A stretch of 40,273 nt of DNA from contig NIVC01004626.1 in assembly GCA_002269645.1 (NCBI GenBank), forward strand, positions 1 to 40,273. Direction: 5' to 3'. The translations under genes were made by a program, and so were the position numbers. Below are positions 1,768 through 25,727 of the stretch, piece by piece (the first letter of the stretch is position 1; each line of letters starts with the position of its first letter). The stretch is from Macrostomum lignano (taxonomy: Eukaryota). A model generated the notes under the pieces. The model did not search any database and had not been told where the DNA came from. It saw nothing but the letters and a program-made list of their open reading frames with translations.

Positions 1768-1917
1768 AACTGATTAAAAATCTTAAACAATTTGCGAATT
1801 CTTTTGGTCAACAGCCAACCTTAGCAGCATTCAATAAAACTCTGTCGAAAAATGAGTTGGCCTAGGCTAACCGCCTATTTCATCCATATGGTATTTTCTC
1901 TATTTACACTGTACGCA

Positions 1918-2581
1918 ACTACTAAGCAACGGCAGATGGCTCGATTTGCGAAGGTCCGTCGGGCTGATGTCGGCCTCTAGCACCGCGGCAAGGTGCTCCC
2001 TCGGGGTGTACACCTCCCCGGGGTGTACCTCCAGCGGGGTGGGTGTCCAGCGAGTGTACTCCAGCGGGGTGGGCCTCCCGCGAGTGTACATCCGGCCGGC
2101 TGGGCGTCCAGCGAGTGTACCTTCAGCGCATGGGCCTCCCTCGGGGTGTACATCCGGCGGGGGGATTCCCGCCCCTCCCACCAATGTCGTGTGCACGCGG
2201 TTAGTGTAGGAAGGAAACCCCCGATGCTGACGCAGCCCTGTACACTGAGCAACCGGCCCCCCATGCGGGGGACAGAGAGCAGCCCTGTAGCTGGGGACAG
2301 AGAGCAGCCCCTGTAGCAGGAGGGGTAGTGCGTGGAGAGCCGCCATCCCCTGTAGCAGGGGACAGATAACAGGCGACCCCTGTAGCAGTATGAGGTGGGG
2401 TACAAAGAGACACGGGGTGCTGGGACAGAGAGTGCGTGGAGGCACCCTGCGCTGCCCTGGCATGTCGCAGCACGCGGCGTGGACAGAGAGGGAGTGTGAG
2501 TCACACGGAGGGACAGAGAGCTTCCCCAGGCCGGGGTGGTAGAGGACAGACCGGCGGTGAGTGATAGAGAGCTCCCCCAGG
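1918..2581 (+). repeat. Left terminal inverted repeat (GC-rich, with internal ~31-bp and GGACAGAGAG sub-repeats)
   Basis: Reverse complement of 11799-12442. Differs mainly by homopolymer indels, one extra ~24-bp unit and a 9-bp sub-terminal block. Confidence 0.95.
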
Positions 2582-2671
2582 GCAGTAGAGGACTTGAAAG
2601 AAAAAACACGTATTTTAGTTGTTTCAGGTTCAGGCCATCCGGCAAACAGAGCAAAGCTCTCCAACAGTGTT

Positions 2672-3301
2672 TTATTTAGCATAAACTACGGGGTAGCGCC
2701 CCAACACATTAGCATAGTAGCGAACAGATGCGTTCTGCAAGCAATTAACAATCAAGTAGGAGTAGGGCTCCCTAGTGGCGTCTTCGTACATTTGAACAAA
2801 ACTTTTTGGGTTAGCGGGGACAAGCTGCTTTGCAATATGGCGCGACTGTACTAACGTCCCGTACATTGCGGAACAATACAAGGTAGTTTGCGTTAAGGGA
2901 TTGAGTGCGGTGCTCCTTGCCTTGGCAAACAGGTTTTGTACAAGGTACCAAAGCCGGAATCCCACATGGCTGACTTTGCGAGTGAAAAATGCGGTAAAAG
3001 CAGCGTTTTTTTCCATGGCTTGCATTTGATCATCGACAACGAGTAGAATATTCGGAGCGGGAACATAGGTTTCAGGGTTAAATGTAGACGAGCGAAAATT
3101 GACAGGGTACGGTAATTCAAACAGTTCCGGGTCTGGATAGTGCCCAAACCAATCAACGCGAACAGGCTTAGGGTCCTGAAAAAACTCGTTTCGCAGCAAT
3201 TCTTTAACAAGAGTTGTTTTTCCGCTCTGGTTAACACCAGCAAAAATCGCCGAAGTATTTGGAGCAAACTTTAGAGCGTCAGGATCAATTGTTTGGTACA
3301 T
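2672..3301 (-). CDS. FtsK/A32-like genome packaging ATPase (likely start ATG at 3301; two compensating frameshifts ~2917 and ~2850)
   Basis: Walker A GVNQSGKT, Walker B LLVVDD, then LVQNLF. The canonical segment GKEHRTQSLNANYLVLFRNVRDVS lies in an alternate frame between the two shifts. Confidence 0.88.
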   Translation of the reverse strand: MYQTIDPDALKFAPNTSAIFAGVNQSGKTTLVKELLRNEFFQDPKPVRVDWFGHYPDPELFELPYPVNFRSSTFNPETYVPAPNILLVVDDQMQAMEKNAAFTAFFTRKVSHVGFRLWYLVQNLFAKARSTALNPLTQTTLYCSAMYGTLVQSRHIAKQLVPANPKSFVQMYEDATREPYSYLIVNCLQNASVRYYANVLGRYPVVYAK

Positions 3302-3335
3302 TTTCAGGGCGAGTTGACACTCCAAATATTAAAAA

Positions 3336-3773
3336 CTATTTTATTTGTAGAACATGTTTTCGAACCATCAAATCATTTTCAAGCAGATTGGTAGAGTAAC
3401 ATTCCCTTAAAATCTTTTCAATCGACAACCCCTCTAAAAAGTGCTTTTCGGCCACAAAAATCACATGCGGCCCACACGCTACACTTAGAGGGTGTTGAAC
3501 AGGGTGGCGATTCATAGCAACAGGTGAATGTACATGCTTCGAGATCCAAGCCGAGAGCAATTCCGGCACGGGTTCAATACACAGAGGGTCAAAAAATGTC
3601 ACACTCTTATCATCGTGTAGGCAAATCAGTCCCCAGTGGGTGCCTGGCAGATTACCCGTGTCAAAATTAATTACATATGCAGCAGGGTAAACAGGTGCAG
3701 GAATTCTGTCGAGAGGGCAAACGTGCACTTCCACAGGTAGTTTTAAACACTCCAAAATTTCCAACGTGTTCAT
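3336..3773 (-). CDS. Adenain-like (adenovirus-type) cysteine maturation protease
   Basis: GTHWGL (His), FFDPL (Asp), PVQHPLSVACG (Gln, Cys) in the expected order; 145 aa. Confidence 0.9.
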   Translation of the reverse strand: MNTLEILECLKLPVEVHVCPLDRIPAPVYPAAYVINFDTGNLPGTHWGLICLHDDKSVTFFDPLCIEPVPELLSAWISKHVHSPVAMNRHPVQHPLSVACGPHVIFVAEKHFLEGLSIEKILRECYSTNLLENDLMVRKHVLQIK

Positions 3774-5050
3774 ACGTAGTCCAGAATGGGCTGGCGGCCT
3801 CTAGTGATTTGCACCGCGTTGTCAAAGTAACCAAACACCAAAACGTTAATCCCGGCAGGTAGGGCTGCAGAAAACTTTATCTGTAGGGTCAGATTCCCTC
3901 TCTCGCGAGGCATGCTATGTCCACCCAGTTCCATATCGGGCATTAGATTCCACGCAAATAAGCAGTAACCGGCGCGATAATCCGAATATGACAGGTCAAT
4001 GTCCAAATCGCGATTCATTTTCCCTAGGCTCTTAAACAGCATGGCGTATTCGCGAGCATAGTTTGGGCAGCGAACCTTGGAGTGAATGGTTGACCGCACA
4101 GACTGACACCGTCCTTGTACAGGGCCACACTGTCAGCCCAAATGGCTCGAAATTGAACGGATTATGGGTAGCCACCCCGTTATATGCGGCACTATTTACC
4201 ATCCCATAATGACAAGTTTAGGCTTCTGCTCCGGGAAAATATTATTGATTGACACGTCGCGAACTCCTACAGCGACAGAGGTGTTGTGTACAACGAGGCG
4301 CTCGATGGGGTAGACTGCATTCTGAGTTGCCAGCTGTTCTTCAATCTCCAAGGCCAGTTGGGGGTTAGCCTTTACCCGACGAACGTGTAATTTTGCACTT
4401 TGAAGAACCAACTTTGCATCAACCCCTTCGGCGTGATTCTCTACAACGAATCCCGAATTTTGCAGAGTGAGCGTAACCACCATATCAGTGTAGGGTAGCA
4501 GCATACGATCGTTGGTGACAAAAAAGTCGAGACTAAGAGGGCCATACAGGTGAAATGTTCGAGAACCGGCAGCCATCGCCTTGCGAGTTACAAAGCCAGG
4601 ATTTCCAACCGCAGCCATTTGACCCCCAGCGTCTTTAGCGTAGCCCATCATCCGCAGTTGGTTAGACTTTGAATCAGACCCATAACTCAAGCATGTACGA
4701 ATGTACGCCTTGTAGGCATGGTTGTTGTTGCTAGACTCGATATGTGTACCATTTATGGAAAGAGACACGTTTTTGAACATGGTCTCCAAGAGGTAATTGA
4801 TTGGCGCCACGTTTGAATCCGCCGCCAAATCGGCTCCATTAGCTCTTTTAATACAACCTTTAATCTCGAGATCAATGTCATTAAGATCGACAAACGTCTC
4901 GCCGCCCACAATTCTAAACTCAACCACACTCGCATTTTCGACGCTGGCAACCGGGTGGATTTCTTCAGTAGTTGAACCTACAGCGGCAATCTGGTGGGCT
5001 CGAGGGGCAAAGAGCTCAAACTCGGACTTTGTACACAGACACTCGGACAT
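3770..5050 (-). CDS. Major capsid protein (double jelly-roll, hexon-like), interrupted by three 1-bp frameshifts (~4200, ~4130, ~4065)
   Basis: N-terminus SEFELFAPRAHQ...VEFRIVGGETFVDLNDIDLEIKG is typical of Polinton MCP. The bridging frames read VNSAAYNGVATHNPFNFEPFGL and VALYKDGVSLCGQPFTPRF. C-terminus NYAREYAMLF...GYCLFAWNL...GNLTLQIKFSAALPAGINVLVFGYFDNAVQITRGRQPILDY. Confidence 0.88.
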
Positions 5051-5079
5051 GTTTAGTAGACAGACTCGATTCGGCGAAT

Positions 5080-5424
5080 CTAATTGAAGCGGGGCTTTTT
5101 ATTTATAGTGCTGAAAATGTCTGAATTGAGACGCTTCGGAGCCTTTTTTCTTCTTCGTCCGCTACCCCTTTGGGTAACCGTGTCTTTAAAGGCGTCCTTG
5201 GCAGCCTGAACAGAATTGCGCAGGACAGACTCCTTCAAATTGCCTCCTTGCTCGAGGCTATCGTTAACAGTAGTTGCTAGGGCTCTAGTACCATGACGGA
5301 GAACGTTTTTACCAAAACTCTTTAGAATTGGCAGCGCGAAGCGGGCAATGCTTCCAAACAAACCGTTGCCCCTCTGGGCGCCCGCGAAAACAGGCAAAGC
5401 TCCACCAATCAGAATAGAAGGCAT
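5080..5424 (-). CDS. Small basic/amphipathic virion-type protein resembling conserved Polinton/adintovirus ORFs (QRGxG motif)
   Basis: QRGNGLFGSIARFALPILKSFGK amphipathic helix, second QRGSG, basic C-terminus RRRKKAPKR; located between penton and hexon. Confidence 0.6.
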   Translation of the reverse strand: MPSILIGGALPVFAGAQRGNGLFGSIARFALPILKSFGKNVLRHGTRALATTVNDSLEQGGNLKESVLRNSVQAAKDAFKDTVTQRGSGRRRKKAPKRLNSDIFSTINKKPRFN

Positions 5425-5467
5425 GATTAAGCACTAGGATATAGTTTACTGAGGCTGTGCTGTTTAT

Positions 5468-6605
5468 TTATAGCTTCTTTTCGCGGATGTTAACGCTCAA
5501 GACGGTCTTGCCCCTCATTACTTTTGTCATATCCCTGCCCATATCATCGTTAATTTGTACTTCAATAGTTTTGAATGGGTGCTTAACCAGCGGTAGATAT
5601 GCCGGATTGACAAACTCGTAGTACTCGCGACCGCCCTGAACTTTGGGATCCATCGGTATAGCTCCCAACAGAGGAACTTTAACGTCTCCTACAATAACAG
5701 AATCGACTATGCTCGAATAGATGTACATTGTTTGTATTCCACCGGTTAATTCCATTGATGTGGCTGCCCCAAATCCGATATACCGAAAAATGGGGTTGTA
5801 TAATCATGCTCTGGGAAACCAAGCATGCGGTCAAGCGCCCCAGCCCAAACATGTAATCCATCGAGCCAATGTAATAACACCTATTCGTAACTTCGCTGTA
5901 TCCGAAAAAGTCCGTTCTAGGTGCTGGAGCCGCTATGAGATCTTTGATCCGTTTCCAAATTAAATTGTTGAGTTCCTCCACCATTCTTTTAGGTGTACTA
6001 TAGTATCCTCCCTGCATAAAAAATATTTGATCAGACGCTGCGCTAGTAACTTGTCTTATTATTGGAGCATGGTCCATTGACTGCACAGTCGGTTCCTCAA
6101 CAACTGCGGTGATGGAGGCTGCACACCCCGCGTGTAATACGAGTTCAGTAGGTAGATCCTCATTAGACTCGAAGCCGGCGACTAGTTTAAACACCTTGGG
6201 TAGGGTATCCGGGAATTTGATGCCGACGGTGGATTTTGAAGTATTCACAATCATAAAGGCGGTTGGGGATGTTCTTAAAAAGACAATTTTCTTATTATCC
6301 CCTTCAACGTATCGGATACCGTTTAGAAAGCCGGAAATACATTCTTCAGGGGTTTTCAGACCCGCTGCGAGACAAAGGTTTGCAAACGACGAAGCCGTCA
6401 AGAGGCCCTCCTGTTCGCGAATGGTGATCGGTATAGATTTTTTGAAAGATTCAAATTCTTTGGTAAAGTAGATCCGTTCGAGGCAAACCTCATGATTCGG
6501 AAAGTGGAGAGTGTCCGGTAAATTAATAAAATAATGAGCCGGATTATTTTCGGGATAGTGCTCGGGGCACGCATTGCTAGGCAGAAAGAGATGCATGGTA
6601 GCCAT
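5468..6605 (-). CDS. Minor capsid protein (penton-like), with one or two frameshifts at ~5770-5840
   Basis: N-terminus HLFLPSNACPEHYPENNPAHYFINLP...EVCLERIYF, an LDRMLGF segment in an intermediate frame, and C-terminus MYIYSSIVDSVIVGDVKVPLL...YLPL...IEVQINDDMG. These are Polinton penton-type motifs. Confidence 0.8.
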
Positions 6606-6608
6606 GCA

Positions 6609-7708
6609 TTAGTTATTATTACGTTGACGTATATTTATAACTTCATTTACAGGTACAAATGAATTAAAAGTGTCGGGATAACCGCGCCAGCTAACGTAAT
6701 GGTGCGCAACACCATTTATTAACACGTTTCTACGCAAAACTTTATTGATTACAAAACGCTCGGGTCGGGTAGATTTGGACAGTTCATTGTAGTAAAACCG
6801 TCCCTCAATCACTTCACCAGACAAATCAGAAATACGATAAAAATGTGGGGGTCCAGGACAAACTTTGGATATAATGTACACCTCCTCACTATACATGTCG
6901 TACGCCTCCTTGTCGAATGCCCGGCGAGATTTCGAAATTCTCACAAAATCCCCCTTTTTATATACGGGGTCGTCTTTTTGCTGATCCGGGTAGAGCTTTT
7001 CCCACACACGCTTCTGATTGTGGAACCCTACACTTGACGGTTTCATCTCAATAGTAGAATGCGTCGTGTTGTTGTAATTACCTACCAAATTGGTAAGTAG
7101 TCAACCCAACGCCACGTGTTGTTGTGCTCAAAGTAGCGAGCCAGACGCTTTCGAAGAGTTCTAATCAGCCTCTCGGCCATGTTTGCCTTGTACACAGAGT
7201 TGGTGCTGTACATTTTAACATTATTGTCTTTTAGTATGCGGCGCATTCGCTGATTATAAAACTCGGTACCCCGATCCACGTGCAGGTAAAGGGGGCGGGC
7301 AGGGAAATCATTCGCCAACATTGACTCAAACGCTGCGGGGGTATCACTCTTTAGTTTAATTGCCCTACAAAAAGCCTGCTTACTAAGCACATCAATAACA
7401 ACTAGTATATATTTATGTCCGTCATTCCAACGTTTGTATCGCGACATGTCCATCAAATCGGCTTGTAGAGTTTCCATGAATCCTCCCGACATTACTTTTC
7501 CCGTTTTAAATGTCCTGTTGACTCTCCGGTGACGGGTGTAACTCGGTTGGGTTTCTAGCCATTCCCTGGTTTGGCGTCTTGTCAGGTTTGGCGCCAGACG
7601 TTTGGCCTCCTGATAGACACGGGCAGCATTTGAAAAAGCGGCGGCTCCTTGTTCGTAAACTCGACGAAGAGCGGTTAGAGCCCTCATTGACAACAAGTGT
7701 GGATGCAC
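6609..7708 (-). CDS. Retroviral-like (rve) integrase with C-terminal chromodomain; one 1-bp frameshift at ~7090
   Basis: DDE triad: QADLMD, HVDRGTEF, AERLIRTL. YNNTTHSTIEMKP follows the shift. Chromodomain FVINKVL...YVSWRGYPDTFNSFVP. Confidence 0.92.
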
Positions 7709-7859
7709 AGCATGAATAGTTGCACGTAATGTCGGCTGGGGAGTTGTCTACACAAAGCTTTGATGCGGCGGCTGCTGCGCCCATGACCGCCGGGCGCGGT
7801 TATGTATGGATTAGGGTTCTATTTATAAAGAGTATCGTATTTTCGGTTCCGGGGCGGTC

Positions 7860-8441
7860 TTAGTTGGTAATCGTGATATTTACCCATCCCGGCACCTTGA
7901 TCCACAAGTTGGGCATAGCATTTACACCTTTGTTGCGCGTGGTCGTTAAATCGCGGGTGTCTGTCGCAATTGTGTGCTCATATTCATCGCGGTAATCATC
8001 GGTACCAACCATATGGTCAACCTTCTTTTCCTCCACAGGGAGCTGTTTCCGACCGAGCATAGACATTGGTATACGGGCCTTGTCTAGCAGAGCCCAGAAA
8101 GCGGTCGAATATTTCGGGTGATTATTAGTGTTGGTGGTGACGGCTTGTAGAAGATCAAAAACGTTGCTGCCACCCCAAGTTTCACCATCAAAAACGACTT
8201 CCCACGATTGGTTGTAATTTAGGCTGGGGTGCTTTTCTGTTAGTATATTCCATATACGTTGTTGCCTATCAGAAAATAGCTGCTTTGTCGTCTTTTGGGG
8301 TTTTACTTTAGCCAATTGGGTCTGTAGCTTTGCATTGTACTCTACAAGTTTTTCGTACTCCGATTTTGGGGCAATTTCTCGCGGAGTACCCTGTCTAAGC
8401 TGATTGAATTCCTCCTCGGGGACCACAACGTACTTGTCCAT
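7860..8441 (-). CDS. Conserved Polinton/adintovirus-type hypothetical protein (likely start MDKY at 8441)
   Basis: Coiled N-terminus and the segment YNQSWEVVFDGETWGGSNVFDLL...HPKYSTAFWALLDKARIPMSMLG, which resembles an ORF I recall from Polinton-like elements. Recognition from memory only. Confidence 0.5.
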   Translation of the reverse strand: MDKYVVVPEEEFNQLRQGTPREIAPKSEYEKLVEYNAKLQTQLAKVKPQKTTKQLFSDRQQRIWNILTEKHPSLNYNQSWEVVFDGETWGGSNVFDLLQAVTTNTNNHPKYSTAFWALLDKARIPMSMLGRKQLPVEEKKVDHMVGTDDYRDEYEHTIATDTRDLTTTRNKGVNAMPNLWIKVPGWVNITITN

Positions 8442-8443
8442 TT

Positions 8444-8833
8444 TCAACGTCGTTGTCCTAGCAGACCGCCAAACAGTCCAGTGATTAACGGAGCAGCAAT
8501 CTTGGCGAGAATTGGTAGGAATCCTCCAACTTGAGGGTCCGATAGTATCATATTCTTCTTCCTATTTATAGACAGTTTTTTGTCGGCCATGTCATGCAGG
8601 GCTTCTCTATAACGTTTCAACCTTGCAAACTGTCTAGGGGATAGATCGATATTGCCCTTGAGTACATTGTGGCTTAACTCGCACAGACACTGCATCAACT
8701 CATTATCGGCTCCCCTAATAATGGCCCTCCTTCGATGTGGTCGCGCGTCACCGAGCTCCTCTAGCTCGCGACGGCAAGAACAAAGACGAGAAATTCCGTT
8801 TGTCATTATTAAGGTGGTAAGCATTGCGTGCAT
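8444..8833 (-). CDS. Conserved small protein with C-terminal amphipathic helix (QxGGFL motif), putative membrane-active virion protein
   Basis: CLCELSHNVLKGNIDLS...LKRYREALHDMADKKLSINRKKNMIL...QVGGFLPILAKIAAPLITGLFGGLLG matches the pattern of a widespread Polinton/adintovirus ORF. Confidence 0.6.
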   Translation of the reverse strand: MHAMLTTLIMTNGISRLCSCRRELEELGDARPHRRRAIIRGADNELMQCLCELSHNVLKGNIDLSPRQFARLKRYREALHDMADKKLSINRKKNMILSDPQVGGFLPILAKIAAPLITGLFGGLLGQRR

Positions 8834-8871
8834 ACATGTGCATATTTTGTTTATTTATAAGCAAAGCATAA

Positions 8872-9390
8872 TTAGAGTTGCAGAATAGCAGTCACGTGGT
8901 CGTACATTTTACACAGTTCGTCATAGTTTCGTATTCCTAGGAACACTAACCGACCATTCTTTCCGCACAGCAGGCACTTGGCCTTGCGGAATGGGGACTT
9001 TATTACAAGCCCATTGAATACCTCACTCTCCCACTCAACCCAGCGCGAGCTCGAGTTGGCAAGGCGGAAAAAGTTTGGCTTAACATTAACTTCTGCACGA
9101 TAAGTACCGGTAGTGATAACAACAGAGTTTGGTTTACATTGAGCAAAAAGACGCAGCACATCGTTGGTTGATTGGCAACCAAAAACAATGGCAGATAATG
9201 AACGTTTGAAAAAGTTTATTGTACACTTTCCGATCCTCAGGTTGTACAATGCCCGGGGTCTATGAAACGTTCTAGCGCGCGCCCAGTCCAAGTTCGGTAG
9301 GTGGTTCCACCTTGCGCAAAACACCCTGTTTACGCACACGACGTTCTGCAAGCGGTTTTTTCGGTTGCTTTTGTTTCCGCTCAGCTCCAC
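8872..9390 (-). CDS. Divergent TATA-binding-protein (TBP)-like protein; no in-frame ATG found
   Basis: Collinear by-eye alignment with both TBP repeats: RLQNVVC vs QLQNIVS; AIVFGCQS vs MVCTGAKS; EWESEVFNGLVIK vs SYEPELFPGLIYR; GRLVFLGIRNYDELCKMYDHVTAIL vs [25 protein letters not shown]. The ~160-aa core is the right size. Confidence 0.7.
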   Translation of the reverse strand: MELSGNKSNRKNRLQNVVCVNRVFCARWNHLPNLDWARARTFHRPRALYNLRIGKCTINFFKRSLSAIVFGCQSTNDVLRLFAQCKPNSVVITTGTYRAEVNVKPNFFRLANSSSRWVEWESEVFNGLVIKSPFRKAKCLLCGKNGRLVFLGIRNYDELCKMYDHVTAILQL

Positions 9391-9985
9391 CAGCTCCGCG
9401 CTTGCGTCCTACCTTGATTTTTAACGGTGGAATCCAGTAGCAGCGGTCAAACGCCTGCTTGGGAGCTTCTATGAATTGCAGTTGTTGAATTTTTGGTACC
9501 GCGGTTAGAACCGAGTCGTGAATCACCGCCGTGTCTAGGGCGAACAGTACTCTATAGTAGCCCGTCTTGTTCTTGTAGTCGGTGCACAACTTGCCGCTCT
9601 TGTCGTACATTTTAAAGTCGTGAGCCAATCCGAATGCAGCGCTGTCGCAGCCAAAAGTGGGGTTGTACCCCAATAGCGCCATTCCTTGGATAGAGAGCTG
9701 GTGACACACGGAATTGAACGCTTCTGGTATGCAGCTCTCCAAGTGCTTTTGGGAAAGAATGATGAATTCGCGGCCTTCATTGTCGGTTCTCACACCCTTG
9801 ACAATCAGTACGGGCGTCGCATTGGCAAGATAGAGAGGGCCCTGTTCGTCGTACTCAATGTCGTACGTCTCGGTTCCGTTGTAGCTTGGACCTCTCGACT
9901 TGAGAGAGAATAGGTCGATCCTAACACTATTGTAGTCTTGAACGGTATCCATGTTGCTGCTGCTGTTGCTGAGAGTGGGTCTCAC
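9272..9985 (-). CDS. Hypothetical protein, possibly an OB-fold ssDNA-binding protein, with a basic tail
   Basis: 237-aa ORF, beta-rich, ending in a YRVLFALDTAVIHDSVLTAVPKIQQLQFIE strand pattern reminiscent of viral SSBs. TATATAA upstream at 10001-10007. Confidence 0.35.
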   Translation of the reverse strand: MRPTLSNSSSNMDTVQDYNSVRIDLFSLKSRGPSYNGTETYDIEYDEQGPLYLANATPVLIVKGVRTDNEGREFIILSQKHLESCIPEAFNSVCHQLSIQGMALLGYNPTFGCDSAAFGLAHDFKMYDKSGKLCTDYKNKTGYYRVLFALDTAVIHDSVLTAVPKIQQLQFIEAPKQAFDRCYWIPPLKIKVGRKRGAGGAERKQKQPKKPLAERRVRKQGVLRKVEPPTELGLGAR

Positions 9986-10043
9986 ACCCTGAGCGCCTCC
10001 TTATATACCCTTGGGCGGAGGGTGGGGTGGCTGGGCGTTTTTG

Positions 10044-10559
10044 TTATAGTGCTTCTTTAACGACACTTTCCGGTGTTGGAAATCCGGAAAAAATAAACCT
10101 TTTGTTTCGATCTTCTGGTCGAGGGGTTTGAGGCGTGTCGTTAATGCAGCTGCAGTGAGGGTTGATAGTCAACTTCGCTAGCACTGGTCTACTGTGTTTA
10201 GGTCGCCAAATCCTTTGGTGTTCTGTCCACGAGGGAGCAATCGGCTGGTGATTCCGGTACCGTATTTTCTCACGATGATCCTCTTGTAATATTGGGGCAA
10301 TTATCTGCTCCATTCTTTGAAGATTGGCTTTGAAATGCATCTTGTCTCTAAAGTAGTAGTCAATTCGGGCATCTGTATATTCTTGGGTGCTGTAAGGCCC
10401 TTGCCCAATTTCGTCTACCTCGACATTAAAGGTGACTAATCGTTCGGGAATTGGTTTGCCGTGACAAATGCATAACCAGTCTGTGGACTTTTTCAGGGTC
10501 TCGTACTCTGCCCTTTCTTTGCTCGATAAAAGCGGGTAGTCTCGAGAAATCCAGCTCAT
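10044..10559 (-). CDS. Hypothetical protein (171 aa)
   Basis: Co-oriented ORF filling the gene array; ATGA overlap with the upstream ORF stop. No recognised motif. Confidence 0.55.
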   Translation of the reverse strand: MSWISRDYPLLSSKERAEYETLKKSTDWLCICHGKPIPERLVTFNVEVDEIGQGPYSTQEYTDARIDYYFRDKMHFKANLQRMEQIIAPILQEDHREKIRYRNHQPIAPSWTEHQRIWRPKHSRPVLAKLTINPHCSCINDTPQTPRPEDRNKRFIFSGFPTPESVVKEAL

Positions 10560-10933
10560 TCCTCTGACTCGTCAGATTCGTCGAGAAAGAAATAGTGGAA
10601 GAAATTGTCGACTCTATTCTTTTCAACTGCACAAAGTATTTTGTCTGACAGGTGAAATTCGCAGTCTCCTTTTACGTACAGGCGCTTCCCGTCGATAACT
10701 TTGATAGATGCGCCGCCTCCGAGATCGTAATCTGTGCAGCTAGTGCCCAGAAATTTCATTCGATGCCATTGTGCTCGACTAAACACGGCTCCTGGACAGC
10801 TACAGTTTTGACAGTGGATGCGGAAACGCGGTTTGTTTGGGTCCCAATATCCCACTTCCAGCACTGCGTTGTCAACGTGGGTGTACACTATTTCCGATTG
10901 CCAGTACATTTCGATATTGTTGAGAAATACCAA
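10556..10933 (-). CDS. Hypothetical protein, possibly PC4-like (likely start MYWQ ~10909), acidic tail
   Basis: LEVGYW...RFRIHC...PGAVFSRAQWHRMK resembles the PC4 strand/G-x-x-x-x-x-QW helix pattern. TATA box about 30 nt upstream of the internal ATG. Confidence 0.4.
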   Translation of the reverse strand: MVFLNNIEMYWQSEIVYTHVDNAVLEVGYWDPNKPRFRIHCQNCSCPGAVFSRAQWHRMKFLGTSCTDYDLGGGASIKVIDGKRLYVKGDCEFHLSDKILCAVEKNRVDNFFHYFFLDESDESEE

Positions 10934-10943
10934 TTTTATTTAT

Positions 10944-11741
10944 TTATAGGCTGCCGTCTGAACAGATTTCCAACCATTCCCTCCACTGTAGAACGGTTCT
11001 CTCAATTGATAAAAGTAAATACGCCGCTAGGAGCCCCCGGTTGCTGCTGCGCGCTTCGTAAAGACAGTTGAGATATGTGTCTCTATTTGCATACGCAAAT
11101 GATACGGGTTCTGGCAGAATCCGGTTGATCAACTTTGATAATAACAACCTAGCAGTTCTACCATTGCCGTCGCTAAAGGGGTGTATGGTGAGAAACTTTT
11201 CTAGGAAATATGCTCCTGTCACTACTGCATCACGCAAGATTTGTGGCTCTTTTATGTCTCTAGTTAATTTTACCAGCTGCCGTTCAATATTTTCTGGGGC
11301 ACTGTAATACATACTCGCGCCTGCTGGCTTGGCGTGCTTAATTCTATACGATCCTGCATTCGGGAGCAGTCCTCTGCACACGCGTGTGTGAACTTGTCTA
11401 ACAAACTCTGTGTCAATTAACCCCCTCGTGTCATTGAGGTGTATTGCCGCACTCCATAGATTGGCTGTGACCATACAGGACCGGGTTTTTATCGCTTCTT
11501 CTGCTTCCTCCCAAGTCAACGCCACCTCTCTCTCCTCAATGTTTACTTCAGTTACGAATGCCAGCCGGGCTAGATACGTGAATTCTAAGCGCTCCTTTGC
11601 GGTCAATCCCTCGATTCTTTTCCTAGTGTCTGATAACAATCTTTCAATGAGGGGTAATCTGGCGCGCACGCTCTCGTTGCTGAAATAGGGGTTATCAGTT
11701 ATACCCTCTTCCATGTTCTCCATACAGAGGGTTTTGTACAC
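10944..11741 (-). CDS. Fic (Fido) domain protein, putative AMPylase
   Basis: Complete catalytic motif HPFSDGNGRTAR. Upstream QVHTRVCRGLLPNAGSYR is typical of Fic. N-terminal EVNIEE...ALTWEE resembles the inhibitory helix of HYPE-class Fic proteins. Confidence 0.92.
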   Translation of the reverse strand: MYKTLCMENMEEGITDNPYFSNESVRARLPLIERLLSDTRKRIEGLTAKERLEFTYLARLAFVTEVNIEEREVALTWEEAEEAIKTRSCMVTANLWSAAIHLNDTRGLIDTEFVRQVHTRVCRGLLPNAGSYRIKHAKPAGASMYYSAPENIERQLVKLTRDIKEPQILRDAVVTGAYFLEKFLTIHPFSDGNGRTARLLLSKLINRILPEPVSFAYANRDTYLNCLYEARSSNRGLLAAYLLLSIERTVLQWREWLEICSDGSL

Positions 11742-11798
11742 TGCTTCTATTTATGGTTGCATTAACACGTTGCTCGCGGCCTGTCTGTCCCTCTGCAG

Positions 11799-12442
11799 CC
11801 TGGGGGAGCTCTCTATCACTCACCGCCGGTCTGTCCCTCTACCACCCCGGCCTGGGGAAGCTCTCTGTCCCTCCGTGTGACTCACACTCCCTCTCTGTCC
11901 ACGCCGCGTGCTGCGACATGCCAGGGCAGCGCAGGGTGCCTCCACGCACTCTCTGTCCCAGCACCCCGTGTCTCTTTGTACCCCACCTCATACTGCTACA
12001 GGGGGCCGCCTGTTATCTGTCCCTTGCTACAGGGGGATGGCGGCTCTCCACGCACTACCCCTCCTGCTACAGGGGCTGCTCTCTGTCCCCCGCATGGGGG
12101 CCGGTTGCTCAGTGTACAGGGCTGCGTCAGCATCGGGGGTTTCCTTCCTACACTAACCGCGTGCACACGACATTGGTGGGAGGGCGGGAATCCCCCCGCC
12201 GGATGTACACCCCGAGGGAGGCCCATGCGCTGAAGGTACACTCGCTGGACGCCCAGCCGGCCGGATGTACACTCGCGGGAGGCCCACCCCGCTGGAGGTA
12301 CACTCGCTGGACACCCACCCCGCTGGAGGTACACCCCGGGGGAGGTGGTACACCCCGAGGGAGCACCTTGCCGCGGTGCTAGAGGCCGACATCAGCCCGA
12401 CGGACCTTCGCAAAATCGCGCCATACGGAATCCCTTAGTAGT
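11799..12442 (-). repeat. Right terminal inverted repeat
   Basis: Reverse complement of 1918-2581. Confidence 0.95.
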
Positions 12443-12598
12443 TACGCACGATGTACTCAAATAATATATCTCCGCCAAACCCCCAAAATTTTCACCTCTG
12501 TTTAAGTTAGAAAATATAAAAGCTGAATTCTGGGCTGCGACCGCCCTAACTTCGTTTTCTTTATCGTCAGCCAAAATCAATTATTGGTTTATTCTTTA

Positions 12599-12611
12599 TG
12601 GCGCCCAAACA
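12599..12611 (+). other. BEL primer-binding site (tRNA-Lys-like TGGCGCCC)
   Basis: TGGCGCCCAAACA directly follows the 5' LTR end and resembles known tRNA-Lys PBS sequences. Confidence 0.7.
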
Positions 12612-13171
12612 AAAAGTACAACAAACAATTTAAAACTATTGCGGCCTACAGAAGCTCAAGCTAGTGCAACTGCACTGAATCTCTAGCGCAGCGATATTTC
12701 ACGTTCCGCACGGGGCTGCTATGTTGGCTATCGGCGAAGCGCAGTCATCGGAATAAGCAGCAGCTCGCGGCCTCCGGATCGCTGCAGCGGTGGTCCCGTC
12801 AACGGTATTCCGGTCCCTCGGGTTCCACGAGCAACCTTCAGCCAGGCCCTCTCTGATCGATGTCGAACAGTCCTTGCGTTGATGAGTATCGTAACTGTTT
12901 CTCCTTTTACATTACGTTTTTTGCGCATCTCGTTAACATTATTGACAGTTATACGTATAGTTAATAGCTGATCGTTAAATTTTTCAAACTCTTGAATTTT
13001 AGAGTTTCTCTTAACAAATTTACTCGTATTTTTTTGCTTTTTGCATTCGCTTGTCTTCGTGTTCACTCGTAGTGTTATCCTGCAGTCTGCTTCTTTTTTT
13101 GGGCTGTCCGTCTTCAAGTTCTCAGTGTCGGGAGTTCTTGGCTTTAGCAGCATCTCCCAATTCAAGTCGTC

Positions 13172-16150
13172 ATGGTTCTCAGTGAAGACGAGCTATCTTC
13201 AGCAGTCAGGAAGCGTGCAGGTATCCGCGCGGCGATCACGAAGGCTGTTGGAAAGGCTGACCATCTTCTCTCCGTGGATATTGGTCGAGCTGCTAATCGT
13301 GCGGATGCGGAGGCAACTGTGCAGATTCTGAAGTCGAAATTGACGGCAGTGCAAGCATTGGATGAAGCCATAGAGGAGTCTGTAGCTGAAGAGGGGCTGG
13401 ATGCTGAAGTGGAAGAGAATCAAACTTATTCGATGAAGTGTATCAGCTTAATCAAGATGCTGGAAGCAACTTTCAATAGTCAACAATCGCCGGAGGAGTC
13501 AGCGGCCAAAAGTCATTCCGTAGAGTCCGGTCGCAGATCAAGCTTCCCAAGAGGCAAATCCCGACATTCACTGGGGAGATTTCGGCGTGGCAGTCATTTT
13601 GGGATCAGCTCAACTCTTCCATACATCGCAACTCTAGCCTGTCAGATATAGACAAGTTCAACTATCTCGTCAGCTCTCTGTCCGACTCAGTCAAGGCAAG
13701 CATTCGAGGCCTGTCAGTCACGGCGGCCAATTATTCAATAGCCTTAGATATTTTGCGAGAGCGCTACGGAAAGAAAGAAATCATAGTCAAGGACTTAATG
13801 CACAAGATATCTGAACTTCGTCTTCAGGACTTATCTCTAAAGTGTCTTCAGCAGTTTCACGACGACACAACTGCCAGCATGCGCAGCCTGGAGACTCAGG
13901 GTTGTAGTGTGAGCATCTTTTGTGAATTCTATTAGCTAGTTTCTATATTGTTGTTAATAATAATTATTTTTCTTTAATTTAGTTACGCGGTCTAATGTAC
14001 TTTTTCTTGTTAGTTAGAGTTTACTTTGCGTAAACAGGGTAAAAGTCAGACGCCAATTCTGTGACTCAGCGGAGGGTTGAAGTTTCTGCAAACCCCAGCT
14101 TTGCGCGGCCAGCCAATCAGAACCGGCCTGGACCCTGGCACGCGGCAAAATCCAACTCTACCCGGCGCCGCGGGCTCAGTGCAATTCAGCTTAGCAAGCG
14201 GCCGGCCAGACGACCACCACCCGGCTTGAGGGGGGTTTTGAGGGGTCTGACAATGACTATATATGAAAGTGTGTTTGGCGGTCGGATCTCACCCCTTTTT
14301 TTCCCGCTTCCGGTTTTGTTCCAACTTCCCGGCCGTTTTGCCCTATTTTGGTTCCGCGCTTTGAGGCGCTCAATTTCATCACCCCCGGTCCGTGTTTACT
14401 CACTGCCCGACCGCTTCAGTCTTGTAGCGTAACGTCTCGGCAATCCTTGTCTGAAGTCGTCGCTATTAAGCGCGGTCTAGATAGAGACTGACGGATTCGA
14501 TCAAGTACGTGGCCTCGACCCGAGGGCCTCAGTGTCACACTGAAGGGCAGCGCTGATAGAACTTAGTCAGTGCTCCGCTGAACAGTCGATTCGTCAGGGC
14601 TCTCGTTCGAGCGTAGGTTCTGGTTAGGCCAGTGTTTAGGAATCTTCTCCGTGGTCCTGTTCGGTTTTTCTTCTTCAAGCTGAGATCCGCTCGCCAGTGC
14701 GTTATCTAACTAATTAATTGATTATTATCGTTATTGTTCGTTTATCAGTGCTCGGAATTTAATTGCGTTGCGAAATTGTAGTAAGGATTGTAATCAACTT
14801 GACGTCATTTAATTAAATCGTCTGAGTCCATTACTCATTAGCTATTCTTACTAGGATTATCACTCTCTAAATCTATTCGGATCGTTTTCACCTGTGTTCT
14901 TCCTTTTCTTGTACCGTACTGCGACTATTTGAGAAAGATTGGTAGAACTCGCCGACCGGCGATAGGCAATAGGGCCAATAGTTTTAAAATCTCTGAACGC
15001 TCCAAAAATAGGTTTGTCTAGGGCCTAAACTATTGCTTTTCGTGCATGCTATTTATTTAATTGTATTTATCACAGGGTGTTGCCGCGGAATCGTATCAGT
15101 GTCTGCTGGTGCCAAGTCTAATGAACAGGTGCCCTGCTACATTCGACTCGACTTGATTCGGTCAGCTCAACTTCAGGGAAAACTATTGACACGCTTGGCA
15201 GCTTTCTGTGTTTTTTGAAGAATGAAATTTCTGTGCATGAGTCCGCTGGATCGCAGCTCAGCCACAAGTCAACTTCACAAGCATCTCATTCAGAGTCAAA
15301 GCAAGCTTCAAACTCATCAATGTCAATGGCATCAACACTGGTAGCAGTGCAACCGAAAGCACCAGACGCTACGAAAAAAATGTTTTGCACCTATTGCAAA
15401 GCTTTGCATCATTCGGAAATTGCGTGGAGTTCCCGACCGTGGCGTGGCGTGGACAATTTCTGGTGAAAGAGAAGCGGTGCTTCAAGTGCCTGCGGCCTGG
15501 TCACATGGTTCAACAGTGTCGCGATCCGCGGAAATGCCGTGATTGCTCCGGCAAGCATCACGTAAGCATCCGTGCTCAAGGCGTGTCTCGTAAAAAATCT
15601 CCACCTAAAGGTGAACGCCACAACGGCTTCTGGTTCCTCCGACAGCAAAGACAGCAAGGGTTCCTCCGGCTCAAAAAATCGATCTCAGTGTCTCACAGTT
15701 ACGGCCGACGATGAGGCCTCTCGTTCACGTCCTTCGTCTTCAGACTTGCATGGCTCGGAAACAAGGACCACATCATCACAGTTGGAAGCCAGCTCGCTCG
15801 TCATGTCAATGTTTATCTCTGAAAATCCCTCGGTAGCGCTACCAGTTGCCAAAGCTATTCTCTTGAGCGCCGACGGTCGCAGAGAAATGATGGTGCGCGT
15901 CCTTCTCGAAACAGCAAGTAATCGTAGTTATATTCGAAAGGATGTTTGTGAGGCTATGGGTTTTGGTGCGGAAATGACTGAAAATCTGAGTGTCTCATCC
16001 TTCTCTGGCCTCAACACAGACATTTAATCGGGCTGTGTAAGGTTTTCGTAGCGCAAACTCGATTCCTTTGAGACAGTTGAACTCCAGGCAAACATTGTTG
16101 AGACTATTTGTCAACCACAGCGATCTGTGAGGGTCAATGAATTCCAACAT
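13172..16150 (+). pseudogene. BEL gag plus aspartic protease region, frameshifted and interrupted by an insertion
   Basis: KLPKRQIPTFTGEISAWQSFWDQ...LRERYGK gag motif. Cys-His knuckles CTYCKALH and CFKCLRPGHMVQQCRDPRKCRDCSGKHH. Protease site VRVLLETASNRSYI has Glu in place of the catalytic Asp. Confidence 0.85.
13903..15074. mobile_element. Probable solo LTR (~1170 bp, TGT...ACA) inserted in BEL gag
   Basis: Flanked by a duplicated GGGT (13899-13902, 15075-15078; could be read as 6-bp CAGGGT). Removing it restores the frame LETQGVAAESYQCLLVPSLMNR. Confidence 0.75.
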
Positions 16151-16305
16151 CTATCCAGCTTGGATCTGGCCGATCCGTATGACCACGCGACGGACATACT
16201 CCGATTTCGATACTGATTGGATCAGATTTCTTTTATCAAATCGTCGGCGACGAGGTTATTCGTGGATCCCATGGTCCCGTTGCGATTTCTTCAAAGCTTG
16301 GTTAT

Positions 16306-19300
16306 GTGCTCTGCGGACCATTGACGCTTAGTATCTCAAAGTGCGATTCGGAACGATCATCGGATTTACAAAGTGTCCAGGAGGTCAACTGCGCGAATAC
16401 AGCAGCAGTTTGCTGCTTTGTCAATGGCCAAATATCTGTCTCGAAGTCCTTAAATGACGATTTCACTTCTCTTTGGAGGTTGGACTCAATCGGGATTCTA
16501 GATGACCCACAACCTGTTTCGTCCGACGTCTTCCCTTGCAACCCGCAGCTGCATGAGGGACGATATTCTGTGCAGTTGCCTTGGCGTTTCTCCAAGGAGA
16601 CGATTAGCCTGCGTGACCATTTCAATGTAGCGACAACTCGGCTAAAGGCGAGCATTCGACATCTTCAGCGTAATCCAGCACAACTAGCGCAGTGTGATGC
16701 TATTCTTTCCGAACAAGAAGAGCTCGGCATCATCGAGAAAGTTCCAGTCGACGTCAACGACCAGTCGCCGAACATCATTCATTATCTACTACACAGCTGC
16801 GTCACGAAAAAGGATAGCGAACACACGAAGCTACGCATGCTTTTTGACGGATCAGCAAAGACGGACAGTACAGACTTCTCTATCAACGACTTTCTGCTGA
16901 CGGGGCCTACGTGTTTTCCACTGATTCCCCCGATTTTTCTTCGCTTTCGCCTCAAGTCGGTAGCTGTACTAGCAGACATTGAAAAAGCGTTCCTTCAAAT
17001 CGGTATTGACTCGCGTGATCGAGACGCTCTTCGGTTCTTGTGGACAGAGACGACGCCCGACGAGCCCTACAAAGTCATACATTATAGATTCTGTCGAGTA
17101 CCTTTTGGCCTAACTTGTTCACCGGCGATTCTACGAGCTACCATATTGCGACACCTTGAACTGCATCAAGACGATGCTCGGACAGTTGTAAACATCTTAA
17201 AGACTAGCCTGTACATGGACAATTTAGTCACTTGTTGCGATTCGGATGAAGAAGCCGGCGAGTTGTACGCTCAGACGAAGCGAATTTTTGCGGAAGCAGG
17301 CATGAACATGCGGCAGTGGCAGTCAAATTCCAAGGATTTCATGAAGTCGCTTCCTGTAGCGGATGTCGATAAAGCAAAGAAAGTTCTTGGCCTTGCTGGG
17401 GAACCGGATGAAGACATTTTTCGGCTTGAGTTCGCTGCAGTGCTTGACTCCGTCGCAGGTCAGCGGTACTCTAAGAGAATGATGCTTTCAATTTTTTCAA
17501 AGCTGTTTGACCCACTTGGGTTCCTAACACCGGCAGTGACGCTGGTCAAAGCCTGGTTTCAACAGCTTTGCAAGCAGAAAGTCCCGTGGGACGGTGATAT
17601 TCCGAGTGAGATGGCAGCAAAATGGACCCGCTGGTTGGATTCACTCAAGACGTTGAATCTGAAACTTCATCGTTGTGTCGTGCCTCAACAATGGCAGTCA
17701 TGTCGCATTGAAATGCAATTGCACGGTTTTTCTGACGCTAGTAAACGAGCATATACTGCTGTCGTGTACCTAAGGGTTATCGATCATGAGCGCCAGGATG
17801 TTTCTGCTCATCTTCTCATCGCTAAGGCTCGAGTGGCGCCTGTCGTGTCCATCAGCATTGCTCGATTGGAGTTGCTTGGAGCATTAATTCTAGCTCGTTT
17901 AATGGACTTCGTCTCAATCCAACTTCCGGGTCTTAAGCGTCAACTGTGGACAGACAGCATGACTACACTGCAGTGGATCACGTGTGAGTCCAAGCTACGC
18001 CAAGTCTTTGTGCAAAATCGGGTCAGTGAAATTCGACGGTTGACAGAGGCTCAGTAATGGCACCACGTGTCAGGGGAGACGAACCCGGCCGACCTGCCAT
18101 CGCGAGGATGCTTGCCAGAGCAATTGGTTTGTGACGCGACATGGTTATCGGTCCGGAATTTCTTCGAAGATATGACACGCGAGATGCAACCCCGGCGGCA
18201 GTCTACTGTGAACCTGAGCAAAACGAAACGACGACTGTGATGACCGTGGAGTGTACCGATTCTTCTTCACCTTCTCTGCTCAAAGCGATTCAGATTTCAA
18301 GATTTTCTTCGTGGACCAAGCTCACTCGAGTGGTTGGTTGGATCTTGCGATTTGTCAGCATCTTGCGCCATCGGATTGTTAAGCGACCATCCTTGTTAAC
18401 GGCTACGGAAGTATTACAGGCAGAACAGTCAGTGCTGCGAGCCGTACAGTGCGAATCATTGTCGAACGAAATTTCGTGCCTCAGCGGTTCTGGACCTCGT
18501 ATGCCGTTAGTGCGCGATCTCAAATTGTTCCTTGATCCTGCTGGATTAGTTCGGTCAGCGGGTCGTCTGCAGGGCGCTGTGCCCTTCGACACCAACAATC
18601 CAGTGCTGATTCCCTCGAAGCACCCGCTCGAAACCCTGCTTGTCCGTCATTGCCATGCGGCTGTGATGCATTCCGGGGTCGCGGCAACAATATGCAAGCT
18701 TCGTGAACGTTTTTGGATTTTAAAGGCGAGACAGCGCGTGAAGCAGTTACTGGGGGAGTGTGTTGTCTGCAAGAAGTTTCAAGGTCGACCGTTTTCCATG
18801 AGTGCGGTTCCGTAGCTTCCATCCTTCCGTTTGTCAACTGTTCGTGCTTTTCGTACCGTAGGACTGGATTATGCTGGTCCGATATTCTATCGGACGGGGG
18901 AGGGTGGTGAGAGCAAAAAGGCGTACATCCTGCTCTTCACTTGCTCAGCAACTCGAGCCGTTCACCTGGAAGTTGTTTCGAGTATGGACAGCGAACAGCT
19001 TCTGCATGCACTGCGTCGGTTCGTGGCTCGACGGGGCATTCCCTCCGTCGTCAGTGACAATGCGTGGACATTTCGATCAGGCGCCAAACTGATCGGCGCT
19101 AGTATCTCAGAAGAGCTGCAGTCGTTCTGTTCGTCAAAGAAGATTTTTTGGCATTTTGTGCCCGAGCGAGCCCCGTGGTGGGGAGGCTACTGGGAAAGGC
19201 TGATTGGCATCGTGAAGATGGCACTAAAAAAGGCTGCAGGTCGACAGCTGTTTACCTACGACCAATTGATCACTCTAACTGTGGAAGTCGAAGCTGTGGT

Positions 19301-19769
19301 TAACTGTCGGGCGCTGTTGTATGTACCTTCGGATTCAGGCGACGGTATGAAGTTCATCACACCGTCCCATTTCATGGCAGCTAGTCGTCTCAGCCAAGAA
19401 CCGGAAGATATCGACGGTGAGGCGGACTCCGTTCTACCGCTTCCGAAACGGCTTAGAATGCTTAGAGCAGCTTGGAACCAATTTTGGAACCAATGGAAGA
19501 CGTCCTACTTGGAGTCTCTGCGCGAGAAAGCCCTAAAGGATCAACCTAACCGCTGTCCACCAAATGTTGGTGAAGTAGTTCTTCTGGCAGGTGAAGCTCG
19601 ACAACCAAGACTCAAATGGAAATTGGGTATTGTCAAGGAAGTTCGTCCTGGCCGTGATGGTGCTATCCGTTCGGTTCTTCTTCGCGTTGCGGGTGCTGGG
19701 AGTTCCCGGCGCTGGGAACGGGTGAGACGGCCAGTCCAGTCGTTGATTCCTTTAGAGGTTCAATCCTAA
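16306..19769 (+). pseudogene. BEL pol (RT, RNase H, integrase) with two in-frame stops (18055-18057, 18813-18815)
   Basis: RT: ADIEKAFLQI, PFGLTCSP, LYMDN. RNase H: FSDAS. Read-through of the stops gives AQ*WHHVSGETNPADLPSRG and VP*LPSFR. Integrase HHCC plus DDE (GLDYAGP, SDNA, WERL). Confidence 0.9.
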
Positions 19770-20164
19770 GACCGTTATTTTTTTGTCCTTTCCCACAACT
19801 TTCGAATTCGTTTGCTAACTTTTTTGACAGCCTCTCGCCAAAATTTGTAATGAGAAAAGGTTTGTTTTTCTGTTTTGAGATAATTCTCTTGGTGGTGGAC
19901 GATGTTACGCGTCATTATTCGTCATTTTTCCATTTACGTCGTAGTATATTTTTCCTCATCTATCATGCTCACATGCGCTTAAACTTGGCTCTAACGGTTT
20001 TTTGTTCTCTGCTGACTGTTTCACTTAAAACAACAAACCAGTATTTGTCTGTTCGGCTAAGATATTTTTTTCCTTTTTCATTGTTATTTTGCAACAAGTT
20101 CGAACGTAATTTAGGTTTGCTTTTCCGAATTTAAAGAATCAAATGATAAATCATTTGGGGGGAG

Positions 20165-20381
20165 TGTCGAAAAAATGAGTTGGCCTAGGCTAGCCGCCTA
20201 TTTCATCCATAAGGTATTTTCTCTATTTTCACTGTACGCACGATGTACTATCTCCGCCAACCCCCAAAACTTTTCACCTATGTTTAAGTTAGAGAATATA
20301 AAAGCTGAATTCTGGGCTGCGACCGCCCTAACTTCGTTTTCTTTGTCGCCAGCCAAAATCAATTATTGGTTTATTCTTTAA
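20165..20381 (+). repeat. BEL 3' LTR (217 bp, TG...TA)
   Basis: Follows the PPT, matches the reconstructed 5' LTR, and is followed by TSD AACTC. Confidence 0.93.
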
Positions 20382-25439: not shown

Positions 25440-25478
<39 letters not shown>

Positions 25479-25495
25479 GAACTAACGAACTAACG

Positions 25496-25541
<46 letters not shown>

Positions 25542-25567
25542 ATTACTAACTAAATTACTAACTAACG

Positions 25568-25605
<38 letters not shown>

Positions 25606-25632
25606 ATAACTAACTAACTAACTAACTAAATT

Positions 25633-25689
<57 letters not shown>

Positions 25690-25690
25690 G

Positions 25691-25727
<37 letters not shown>

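Follow-up and report, generated by a model that had tools for sequence, protein, structure and literature searches.

A Maverick-type element of 10.5 kb in the flatworm Macrostomum lignano carries a gene for a divergent TATA-binding protein (TBP), as had been proposed from the letters of the DNA without database searches (the sequence-only reading); the predicted fold, the terminal inverted repeats (TIRs) of the element and a dN/dS ratio of 0.076 support that proposal. The gene has no ATG in the expected place and lies between conserved donor-like and acceptor-like splice words, in a host whose spliced-leader genes end in ATG. A conserved gene without a start, so placed, is what sets this TBP apart. 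The explanation that we prefer as a whole, tentatively and at a little under an even chance, is that of a functional viral TBP that would gain its start by splicing and would act via host TFIIB and RNA polymerase II (Pol II) at the TATAAATA boxes of the element. The window, i.e. the whole stretch of DNA analysed, comprises 40,273 nucleotides of contig NIVC01004626.1 (assembly GCA_002269645.1), and the coordinates of its features are collected in Table 1.

The element interrupts the left LTR of a BEL/Pao-type LTR retrotransposon (12467-20380). The hexamer TACGCA is present at both ends of the element and once in the partner LTR without insertion (20171-20380), which indicates a clean insertion with a 6-bp target-site duplication. 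This duplication, the long TIRs and a retroviral-like integrase, its frame broken in the window's copy, agree with the earlier assignment to a Polinton-class element of about 10 kb; the part of that assignment that did not stand is the autonomy of the element, as PolB was not found in it. The largest ORF between the TIRs has at most 309 codons, and tblastn with the polymerase of another Maverick family of this genome gave no match in the window or in eight stretches of other copies. We class the element as a PolB-less Maverick-type element and not as an autonomous Polinton. Neither TFIIB (by Pfam, comparison with host TFIIB and homology to the PolB-bearing family) nor an RNA polymerase was found in the element. 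Its end motif is the reverse of the published Maverick ends, (AGT)2//(ACT)2 (PMC8097293), and does not follow the AG/AGT...CT/ACT pattern.

The virion ORFs gave weak Pfam matches only (Peptidase_C48, AAA), and the capsid-like ORFs had no matches in the profile libraries; the capsid-like (E 9e-20) and ATPase (E 1e-9) ORFs are homologous to those of the PolB-bearing Maverick family of the same genome, and the penton-, core- and major capsid-like names are presumed from motifs. Several frames of the module are broken in the window's copy as assembled. Since the short-read contigs carry single-base indels relative to the window within the broken genes, these breaks are copy-specific or assembly errors. 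Several element genes overlap as ATGA. The element is colinear at 99% with copies on contigs C181 and C150, and a DNA search in which 40 of 70 candidates were scored gave at least 47 matches, which fall into subfamily A, nearly identical, and subfamily B, at 73-75%.

On C150 an extra TIR-bearing piece lies directly beside the full copy (L110), which suggests a tandem or nested integration. The Fic-domain gene adjoins the right TIR and carries the HPFSDGNGRTAR motif; in the subfamily B copy that was read it was not seen at this site, where the 171-aa ORF is duplicated and a short inverted repeat occurs. The 171-aa ORF was considered as a mini-TFIIB and rejected, having no likeness to host TFIIB. 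Ahead of the integrase sits a short ORF (7506-7784) with the start MGAAAAAS, which we take to be myristoylation-like; in one B copy (L106:720-1862) it forms a single 380-aa frame with the integrase. Outside the element, the retrotransposon contains RT, RNase H and integrase-like ORFs, named by eye, and host exons at 21742-29753 and 34546-34909 resemble, again by eye, a degenerin/ENaC channel, with a partial second copy 12.9 kb away.

Table 1 Features of the element and its insertion site (positions in the window)
Feature	Position	Strand	Remarks
Target-site duplication TACGCA, 6-bp	1912..1917	+	second copy 12443-12448
Maverick/Polinton-type element, whole	1918..12442		10,525 bp; ends ACTACT...AGTAGT; every gene on minus strand
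Left terminal inverted repeat	1918..2591	+	
Virion module: penton-like, core-like, major capsid-like, protease and packaging ATPase ORFs	2672..6605	-	
rve integrase with chromodomain	6609..7687	-	Pfam rve E 5.3e-10; frame broken in assembled copy
TATAAATA box of next gene	8852..8859	-	overlaps AATAAA behind TBP stop
TBP-like coding segment, whole two-lobe TBP core, without own start codon	8872..9345	-	157 codons + stop
Upstream ORF, 226 aa	9272..9952	-	conserved 180-aa domain 9413-9952 + basic tail overlapping TBP frame
Putative 3' splice acceptor TTGCAG	9346..9351	-	phase 0 to TBP frame; 56 of 60 genomic places; acceptor use inferred
Spacer, 67 nt, A-rich, putative intron or outron end	9346..9412	-	Lys-rich tail in upstream frame
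Putative 5' splice donor AAG/GTAGG	9408..9412	-	phase 0; 60 of 60 places
TATATAAG box	10000..10007	-	55 nt before upstream ORF; conserved in subfamily B
ORF, 171 aa, unknown family	10044..10559	-	conserved in subfamily B, 62%
ORF, 117 aa, possibly remote PC4-like	10556..10909	-	hhalign E 0.038, probability 1.4% (weak lead)
Fic-domain ORF, 259 aa	10944..11723	-	Pfam Fic E 6.6e-14
Right terminal inverted repeat	11790..12442	-	

The TBP segment is part of a frame that is open from stop to stop over 178 codons (8872-9408, minus strand). The Pfam TBP search that had been suggested as a check gave E 9.5e-5 and 22.6 bits, just below the gathering cut-off of 22.9; the relatives P0003 and P0002 scored 24.6 and 18.1 bits, respectively, and the subfamily B frame had no Pfam TBP match at E 0.1. 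The NCBIfam TBP model matched at E 1.3e-4, 18 of 19 PDB sequence matches were TBPs (best E 0.003), 28 of 30 ESM Atlas matches were TBP clusters (score 0.95), a profile search of 1.84 billion proteins reached an archaeal-type TBP at E 1.6e-4, and hhalign to TBPs gave 96.6% (E 5.8e-10). AlphaFold on the single sequence reached a pLDDT of 42, with no Foldseek match at E 0.001. The model used takes the natural frame of L005, a locus of the family, and an alignment of 13 rows; these are relatives derived from searches, including the named TBP P0012, so that fold and alignment are not entirely independent, and five of the rows have misaligned tails. Its pLDDT is mostly 77-91 across the domain, and the structural check by Foldseek came out in favour of TBP, with a best E of 6e-9 and 44 matches at E<=0.001, of which all those listed were TBPs. 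VIA superposed both lobes on yeast TBP 60-236 (Z 13.5, rmsd 3.6, 159 residues), the best non-TBP row having a Z of 6.5, and in a library of viral structures giant-virus TBPs led (E 5e-8). The chain holds two pseudo-symmetric lobes, as does the TBP family (PF00352); the two-repeat saddle recognised by eye is borne out by these structural matches.

Between subfamilies A and B, dN is 0.139 and dS 1.84 over the 157 codons, and because the ratio is 0.076 at such a dS, the codons mark the frame as a working gene under purifying selection. Relatives at 62-64% were found in other data sets. The phylogeny that had been asked for, a tree of 16 rows, groups the window's protein with P0002, P0003, P0009 and P0011 (100/98), apart from a second Maverick family and from host TBP; the tree is unrooted with long branches, and the donor of the gene therefore cannot be named from it.

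With residues counted from position 9345, Asn6 is the first conserved Asn, kept within VCVN (codon 9330-9328), in a register taken from structure alignments to yeast, human and Sulfolobus TBP (aligned ranges, no gap assumed in the first nine residues) and from MAFFT. The sequence-only reading was right that this Asn is kept and wrong about where: VCVN lies five residues on from the LQNVV that it had taken for the first QN motif, and the L-Q codons of the latter are the hexamer TTGCAG. The Phe of the ELF motif is retained as Phe110, in agreement with the EVF noted before. Of the residues listed earlier as changed, the KRF Phe (Arg29) and the second Asn (Thr79) are so; the lobe-1 L5.1 ('LIF') Phe is kept as Phe46 in NFF, invariant in seven of seven rows, and the third loss is that of the lobe-2 L5.1 LIF/LVF Phe (Cys127). 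The protein thus conserves one Phe per lobe, i.e. two of the four intercalating Phe, and one of the two central Asn of the canonical TATA-binding set, and given these losses its binding of TATA may be weak or absent.

Glu106 and Glu108, the lobe-2 pair (C.L3.2, C.L3.4), are both kept, with E-x-E in six of six close relatives and 15 of 16 aligned TBPs. Helix 2 of lobe 1 has seven residues in the model, a gap of about 10 residues against host TBP, and the basic patch is not found there. In the excerpted text of PMC7221094, the lobe-2 glutamates contact TFIIB, the lobe-1 basic patch binds TFIIA, TAF1, Mot1/BTAF1 and NC2, and giant-virus TBPs are often without the Glu pair and accompanied by an encoded TFIIB. 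Because the pair is kept and no TFIIB was found in the element, these residues favour use of host TFIIB, together with escape from host regulators. Sequestration of TFIIA or TAFs, which had also been suggested, is disfavoured because the lobe-1 basic helix is cut by about 10 residues. A predicted complex between the TBP segment and a single host TFIIB exon, run without DNA, scored 0.01 and weighs neither way.

The subfamily A frame has no ATG before the last helix, and the sole Met of the subfamily B frame is internal, 15 codons in. The GTG at 9390, given earlier as the ORF start, has no conserved counterpart in subfamily B; the segment begins at 9345, after TTGCAG. Database relatives start with M-Q-S-I-R-C-V-N or internally, as expected if the gene caller took TTG. 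The upstream ORF of 226 aa is read in a different frame and overlaps that of the TBP; since contigs of three of four sequencing runs bridge the junction without a gap, this offset is not an assembly slip. The four runs had been guessed to be RNA, none being on record as RNA; the coverage of their contigs is flat over genes and spacers, as from DNA, with no joint or loose end at the junction, and these data are uninformative for or against splicing.

At the four places without TTGCAG the copy is degraded, and its TBP frame contains a stop. The word fits [T/C]TNCAG, the top leader-acceptor motif in the excerpts of PMC8629364, where GT[G/A]AG is the top donor motif, from which GTAGG differs. Since the coding strand of the element interior has 13 instances of [T/C]TNCAG, a single match carries little weight. 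The donor-like word sits exactly at the end of the conservation of the upstream protein; in the A/B alignment, similarity is lost right after AAG/GTAGG (9412) and regained at CTTGCAG/AAC (9346). Over the 60 places the spacer measures 67 nt (32 places), 197 (14), 196 (7), 199 (2), 200 (2) and 66, 195 or 206 (one each), and because its length varies the frame offset is not fixed. Lengths 196 and 197 differ within a C-run, possibly by error. Subfamily A and four of four outside relatives have an offset of +1 with an open spacer (+1 in five of six lineages), and subfamily B has +2 at 17 places, +1 at nine and 0 at one, the +1 copies with a stop in the spacer. The outside relatives (n=4, protein only) show I-A-E or I-S-E at the acceptor spot, residues that vary and are compatible with TTNCAG, and inferred spacers of 64, 67, 67 and 187 nt. 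After the invariant I-K-V the six lineages have G, G, R, C, C and R, and donor position +5 is G in all six, which are related and not independent, against a share of 0.11 in tails. The acceptor at 9346 is probably used.

The 180-aa domain of the upstream ORF had a single structural match, ASFV CP312R (VIA Z 6.2, rmsd 4.9, 136 aligned), obtained with a low-confidence part of a model (pLDDT ~45) and not with the domain folded alone; CP312R is described in the excerpts of PMC9963768 as an OB-fold ssDNA-binding protein. A PHROG SSB match (E 0.55) was seen in one of six members of the family, and the ESM Atlas, Pfam, NCBIfam, PDB and phage libraries gave no match. The model thus points weakly, as a lead, to an OB-fold SSB-like domain. 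A protein search with the upstream ORF, covering lengths of 124-396 aa, gave four matches, all unfused, as genomic gene calls would give.

The host genome holds 71 exact matches to the leader 3' end (control 0). Among 23 leader copies read, seven continue ATG/GTAAG and 16 join varied sequence. Such leader RNA genes ending in ATG/GT, and the [T/C]TNCAG word at the 5' end of the coding part (56 of 60), are features of spliced-leader (SL) trans-splicing; an absence of an upstream cis donor is not found here (donor-like word at 60 of 60). According to the parts of PMC12582326 consulted, citing Cheng et al. 2006, flatworm leaders end in an ATG usable as a start; a leader ATG joined at 9346 would be in frame with the TBP, with its Met six residues before the conserved Asn, which is the register of the native Met in the Maverick TBP of the metagenome fragment L121. 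The same excerpts state that cis and trans splicing often share acceptors and that cis-splicing is rare at operon-resolving sites, and those of PMC8629364 that trans-splicing dominates where an upstream cis donor is absent. That a donor is conserved 67 nt upstream speaks against trans-splicing alone, and we put the chance that the leader contributes at the acceptor at close to even. A first TBP strand composed of L-K-I-K and N-V-V after splicing was ruled out by the structural register. Dispersed leader copies are joined to a shared sequence (L124, L132-L135, L137, L138, L144), with eight of the 23 read beginning AACC, and a trans-spliced retroelement may be their source. On several contigs, true leader genes repeat about every 11 kb.

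To our knowledge, the transcription of Maverick/Polinton genes is essentially unstudied. The element interior has seven TATAAATA on the coding (minus) strand, at 5100, 5465, 6632, 7820, 8563, 8852 and 10941, and none on the other, against 0.19 expected; none of 300 simulations reached seven, and the whole window has nine against 0.98 expected. Six of the seven lie 26-57 nt before an ATG. At four of seven places the box overlaps AATAAA, and it may partly be a poly(A) signal. No TATA box was found directly before the TBP segment. Both TATAAATA and TATATAAG appear to fit the ordinary TATA consensus, TATAWAWR, and host TBP could use TATAAATA; the altered specificity invoked earlier is therefore not needed. 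In the PolB-bearing family, with its better-kept TBP, no such boxes stand before the genes in six stretches read. Because TATAAATA is an ordinary TATA, overlaps AATAAA and is absent before the genes of that family, the link between the element's TBP and these boxes is suggestive only. The earlier idea of a redirection of host Pol II to viral TATA boxes is plausible in view of the strand count (seven to none) and the kept TFIIB Glu pair.

In the explanation that we prefer, the SSB-like and TBP genes would be co-transcribed from the TATATAAG box, and the TBP would gain its start by splicing at the TTGCAG acceptor (9346). By the simplest route, the host spliced leader, with its AUG end, would be joined at 9346 to give a stand-alone TBP of 158 aa; cis-splicing from the donor at 9412 may yield an SSB-TBP fusion as a second product, and unspliced RNA would give the SSB-like protein with its basic tail. 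The TBP would then bind TATAAATA boxes before the virion and integrase genes and recruit host TFIIB and Pol II, the shortened lobe-1 helix allowing escape from TAF1/Mot1/NC2 control, and the outcome would be an early-to-late switch. That a virus lineage takes its AUG from the host leader in this way, one acceptor and a cis donor giving SSB, TBP or SSB-TBP fusion, is a credible possibility that falls short of an even chance. If true, viral late transcription would depend on host trans-splicing and be tied to hosts with an AUG-ending leader.

Splicing might instead be in cis only, the 67-nt spacer being an intron and the product a 337-aa SSB-like/TBP fusion that ties promoter recognition to replicating single-stranded viral DNA, with unspliced RNA giving the SSB alone; adenovirus L4-22K/33K is an analogous spliced/unspliced pair. 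The donor-like word is at every place, in phase 0 and exactly at the end of conservation, G at +5 recurs in the six related lineages far above its share in tails, and the spacer varies from 64 to 206 nt, all as an intron would have it. However, the TBP segment forms a complete core that begins in the register of a natural start, other Maverick TBPs stand alone, the SSB assignment is weak (Z 6.2, pLDDT ~45) and I-K-V is possibly kept for protein reasons, identical A/B codons being common (129 of 249); we consider cis-splicing alone rather unlikely. Without any splicing, a +1 ribosomal frameshift in the A-rich tail or a TTG start at TTGCAG could serve: the offset is +1 in subfamily A and in all four outside relatives with the Lys-rich spacer open, TTG-CAG is in frame, and the ATGA overlaps elsewhere show that translational coupling is used in the element. 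Against this stand the mixed offsets of subfamily B and the spacer stop of its +1 copies, the absence of a slippery word common to A and B, and one relative with I-S-E, which gives no TTG; the donor-like word would be left without explanation, and this route is improbable.

The protein could also be a decoy or repressor, which binds TFIIB/Brf1 or occupies promoters, or binds single-stranded or non-TATA DNA in replication, with no viral activation. Half of the residues with which it would read DNA are changed, those for TFIIB, the two glutamates, are not, and its neighbour is SSB-like. The TBP-TFIIB contact is, however, small and DNA-dependent and so ill suited to a soluble sink, the surface for TFIIA, TAFs and Mot1 is eroded, the first Asn and one Phe per lobe are conserved, and a strand-specific TATA-like box precedes most virion genes. 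In its favour, a Giardia TBP without the Phe residues prefers ssDNA, according to excerpts of PMC12209930; on balance a decoy is distinctly unlikely. A pseudogene, or a chance frame with a lost start codon, would account for the missing ATG and for the other broken frames of the window's copy. It is largely refuted by the selection test and hardly credible, as the frame is whole in most copies read and has relatives at 62-64% in other data sets.

The statement that no TBP is known from a Polinton was too strong. In the available text of Starrett et al. 2021 (PMC8502044), the legend of Fig. 5, a figure of MELD viruses with adintovirus-like PolB, lists TBP, and two other Maverick lineages with TBP were found here; neither PMC11161782 nor 10.64898/2026.06.19.733378 contains the words TBP or TATA. 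When the genome was searched with the Pfam TBP profile, 150 out of 330 candidates were scored and every one passed the cut-off; two host genes account for the top 12 rows. From 18 further TBP loci five were read, and the surroundings, examined at three places, were Maverick-like at all three (integrase, capsid-like, ATPase and polymerase-like ORFs with a TBP and a PC4-like gene). The two TBPs of the second family that were checked have their own ATG (Pfam E 9e-25 and 4e-21). A metagenome Maverick fragment (L121:255-3865) has PC4-like (by eye), TBP, integrase, penton-like and core-like genes in a row; it came from a second metagenome scan with one of 106 candidates, and no related loci were found in viral_contigs or in a first metagenome scan. 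A Maverick-borne TBP is not unique and recurs across lineages. The second family is of very high copy number (C1113, C96, C84; L101-L104, L111-L112; L056-L070). It encodes a well-kept TBP, a homologue of PC4 (in L104 at Pfam E 2.4e-9) and an endonuclease VII-polymerase of 1277 aa, whose ORF is complete in L102; many of the 150 TBP rows share its scores and frame lengths. The host TBP core (L041) and a second TBP-related gene (L047) are each intronless over the core and each occur at three places.

The element shares with Maverick/Polinton elements (adintoviruses) the TIRs, 6-bp duplication, rve integrase and, tentatively, the ATPase, protease and capsid module, and a TBP next to or near a PC4-like gene occurs in the PolB-bearing family and in L121. 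Unlike other Mavericks, it has a reversed end motif and no PolB was found in it, whereas the other Maverick TBPs read have their own ATG; vertebrate Mavericks are reported to be intronless (PMC8097293). With flatworm SL trans-splicing (excerpts of PMC12582326 and PMC8629364) it has in common the acceptor motif, a downstream position in a two-gene unit and an in-frame leader AUG, but that process is described there for host genes, and the element has a donor-like word upstream. Literature searches of open text listed no paper in which a Maverick or adintovirus makes use of a spliced leader. Should the start come from the leader, this would be a viral dependence on trans-splicing, and gene callers would truncate or miss such genes.

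Cellular TBPs (PF00352; eukaryotic TBP/TRF and archaeal) are alike in the saddle, the first Asn, the lobe-1 L5.1 Phe, the ELF Phe and the Glu pair; the element's protein differs from them in its ~20% identity, its shortened lobe-1 helices 1 and 2, the lack of a start codon and the changes of the KRF Phe to Arg, the lobe-2 L5.1 Phe to Cys and the second Asn to Thr. TBPs of Nucleocytoviricota, mirusviruses and poxviruses are likewise divergent with an eroded lobe-1 regulatory surface, according to the excerpts of PMC7221094, but mostly have a TFIIB of their own and often lose the Glu pair, which the 10.5-kb element keeps with no TFIIB found. The working model here is that of the beta/gammaherpesvirus mimics KSHV ORF24, BcRF1 and UL87: a polymerase-less nuclear DNA virus with a TBP-fold protein for late promoters, as set out in the excerpts of PMC12529657. 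ORF24 is large, binds Pol II with viral partners and is modelled there as incompatible with TFIIB binding, whereas the element's TBP is a bare core that keeps the TFIIB stirrup. A TBP with the TFIIB contact and without the regulatory surface, in an element in which no TFIIB or polymerase was found, would offer a minimal, testable model of late transcription, distinct from that of giant viruses, which have their own TFIIB, and from that of herpesviruses, which is TFIIB-free.
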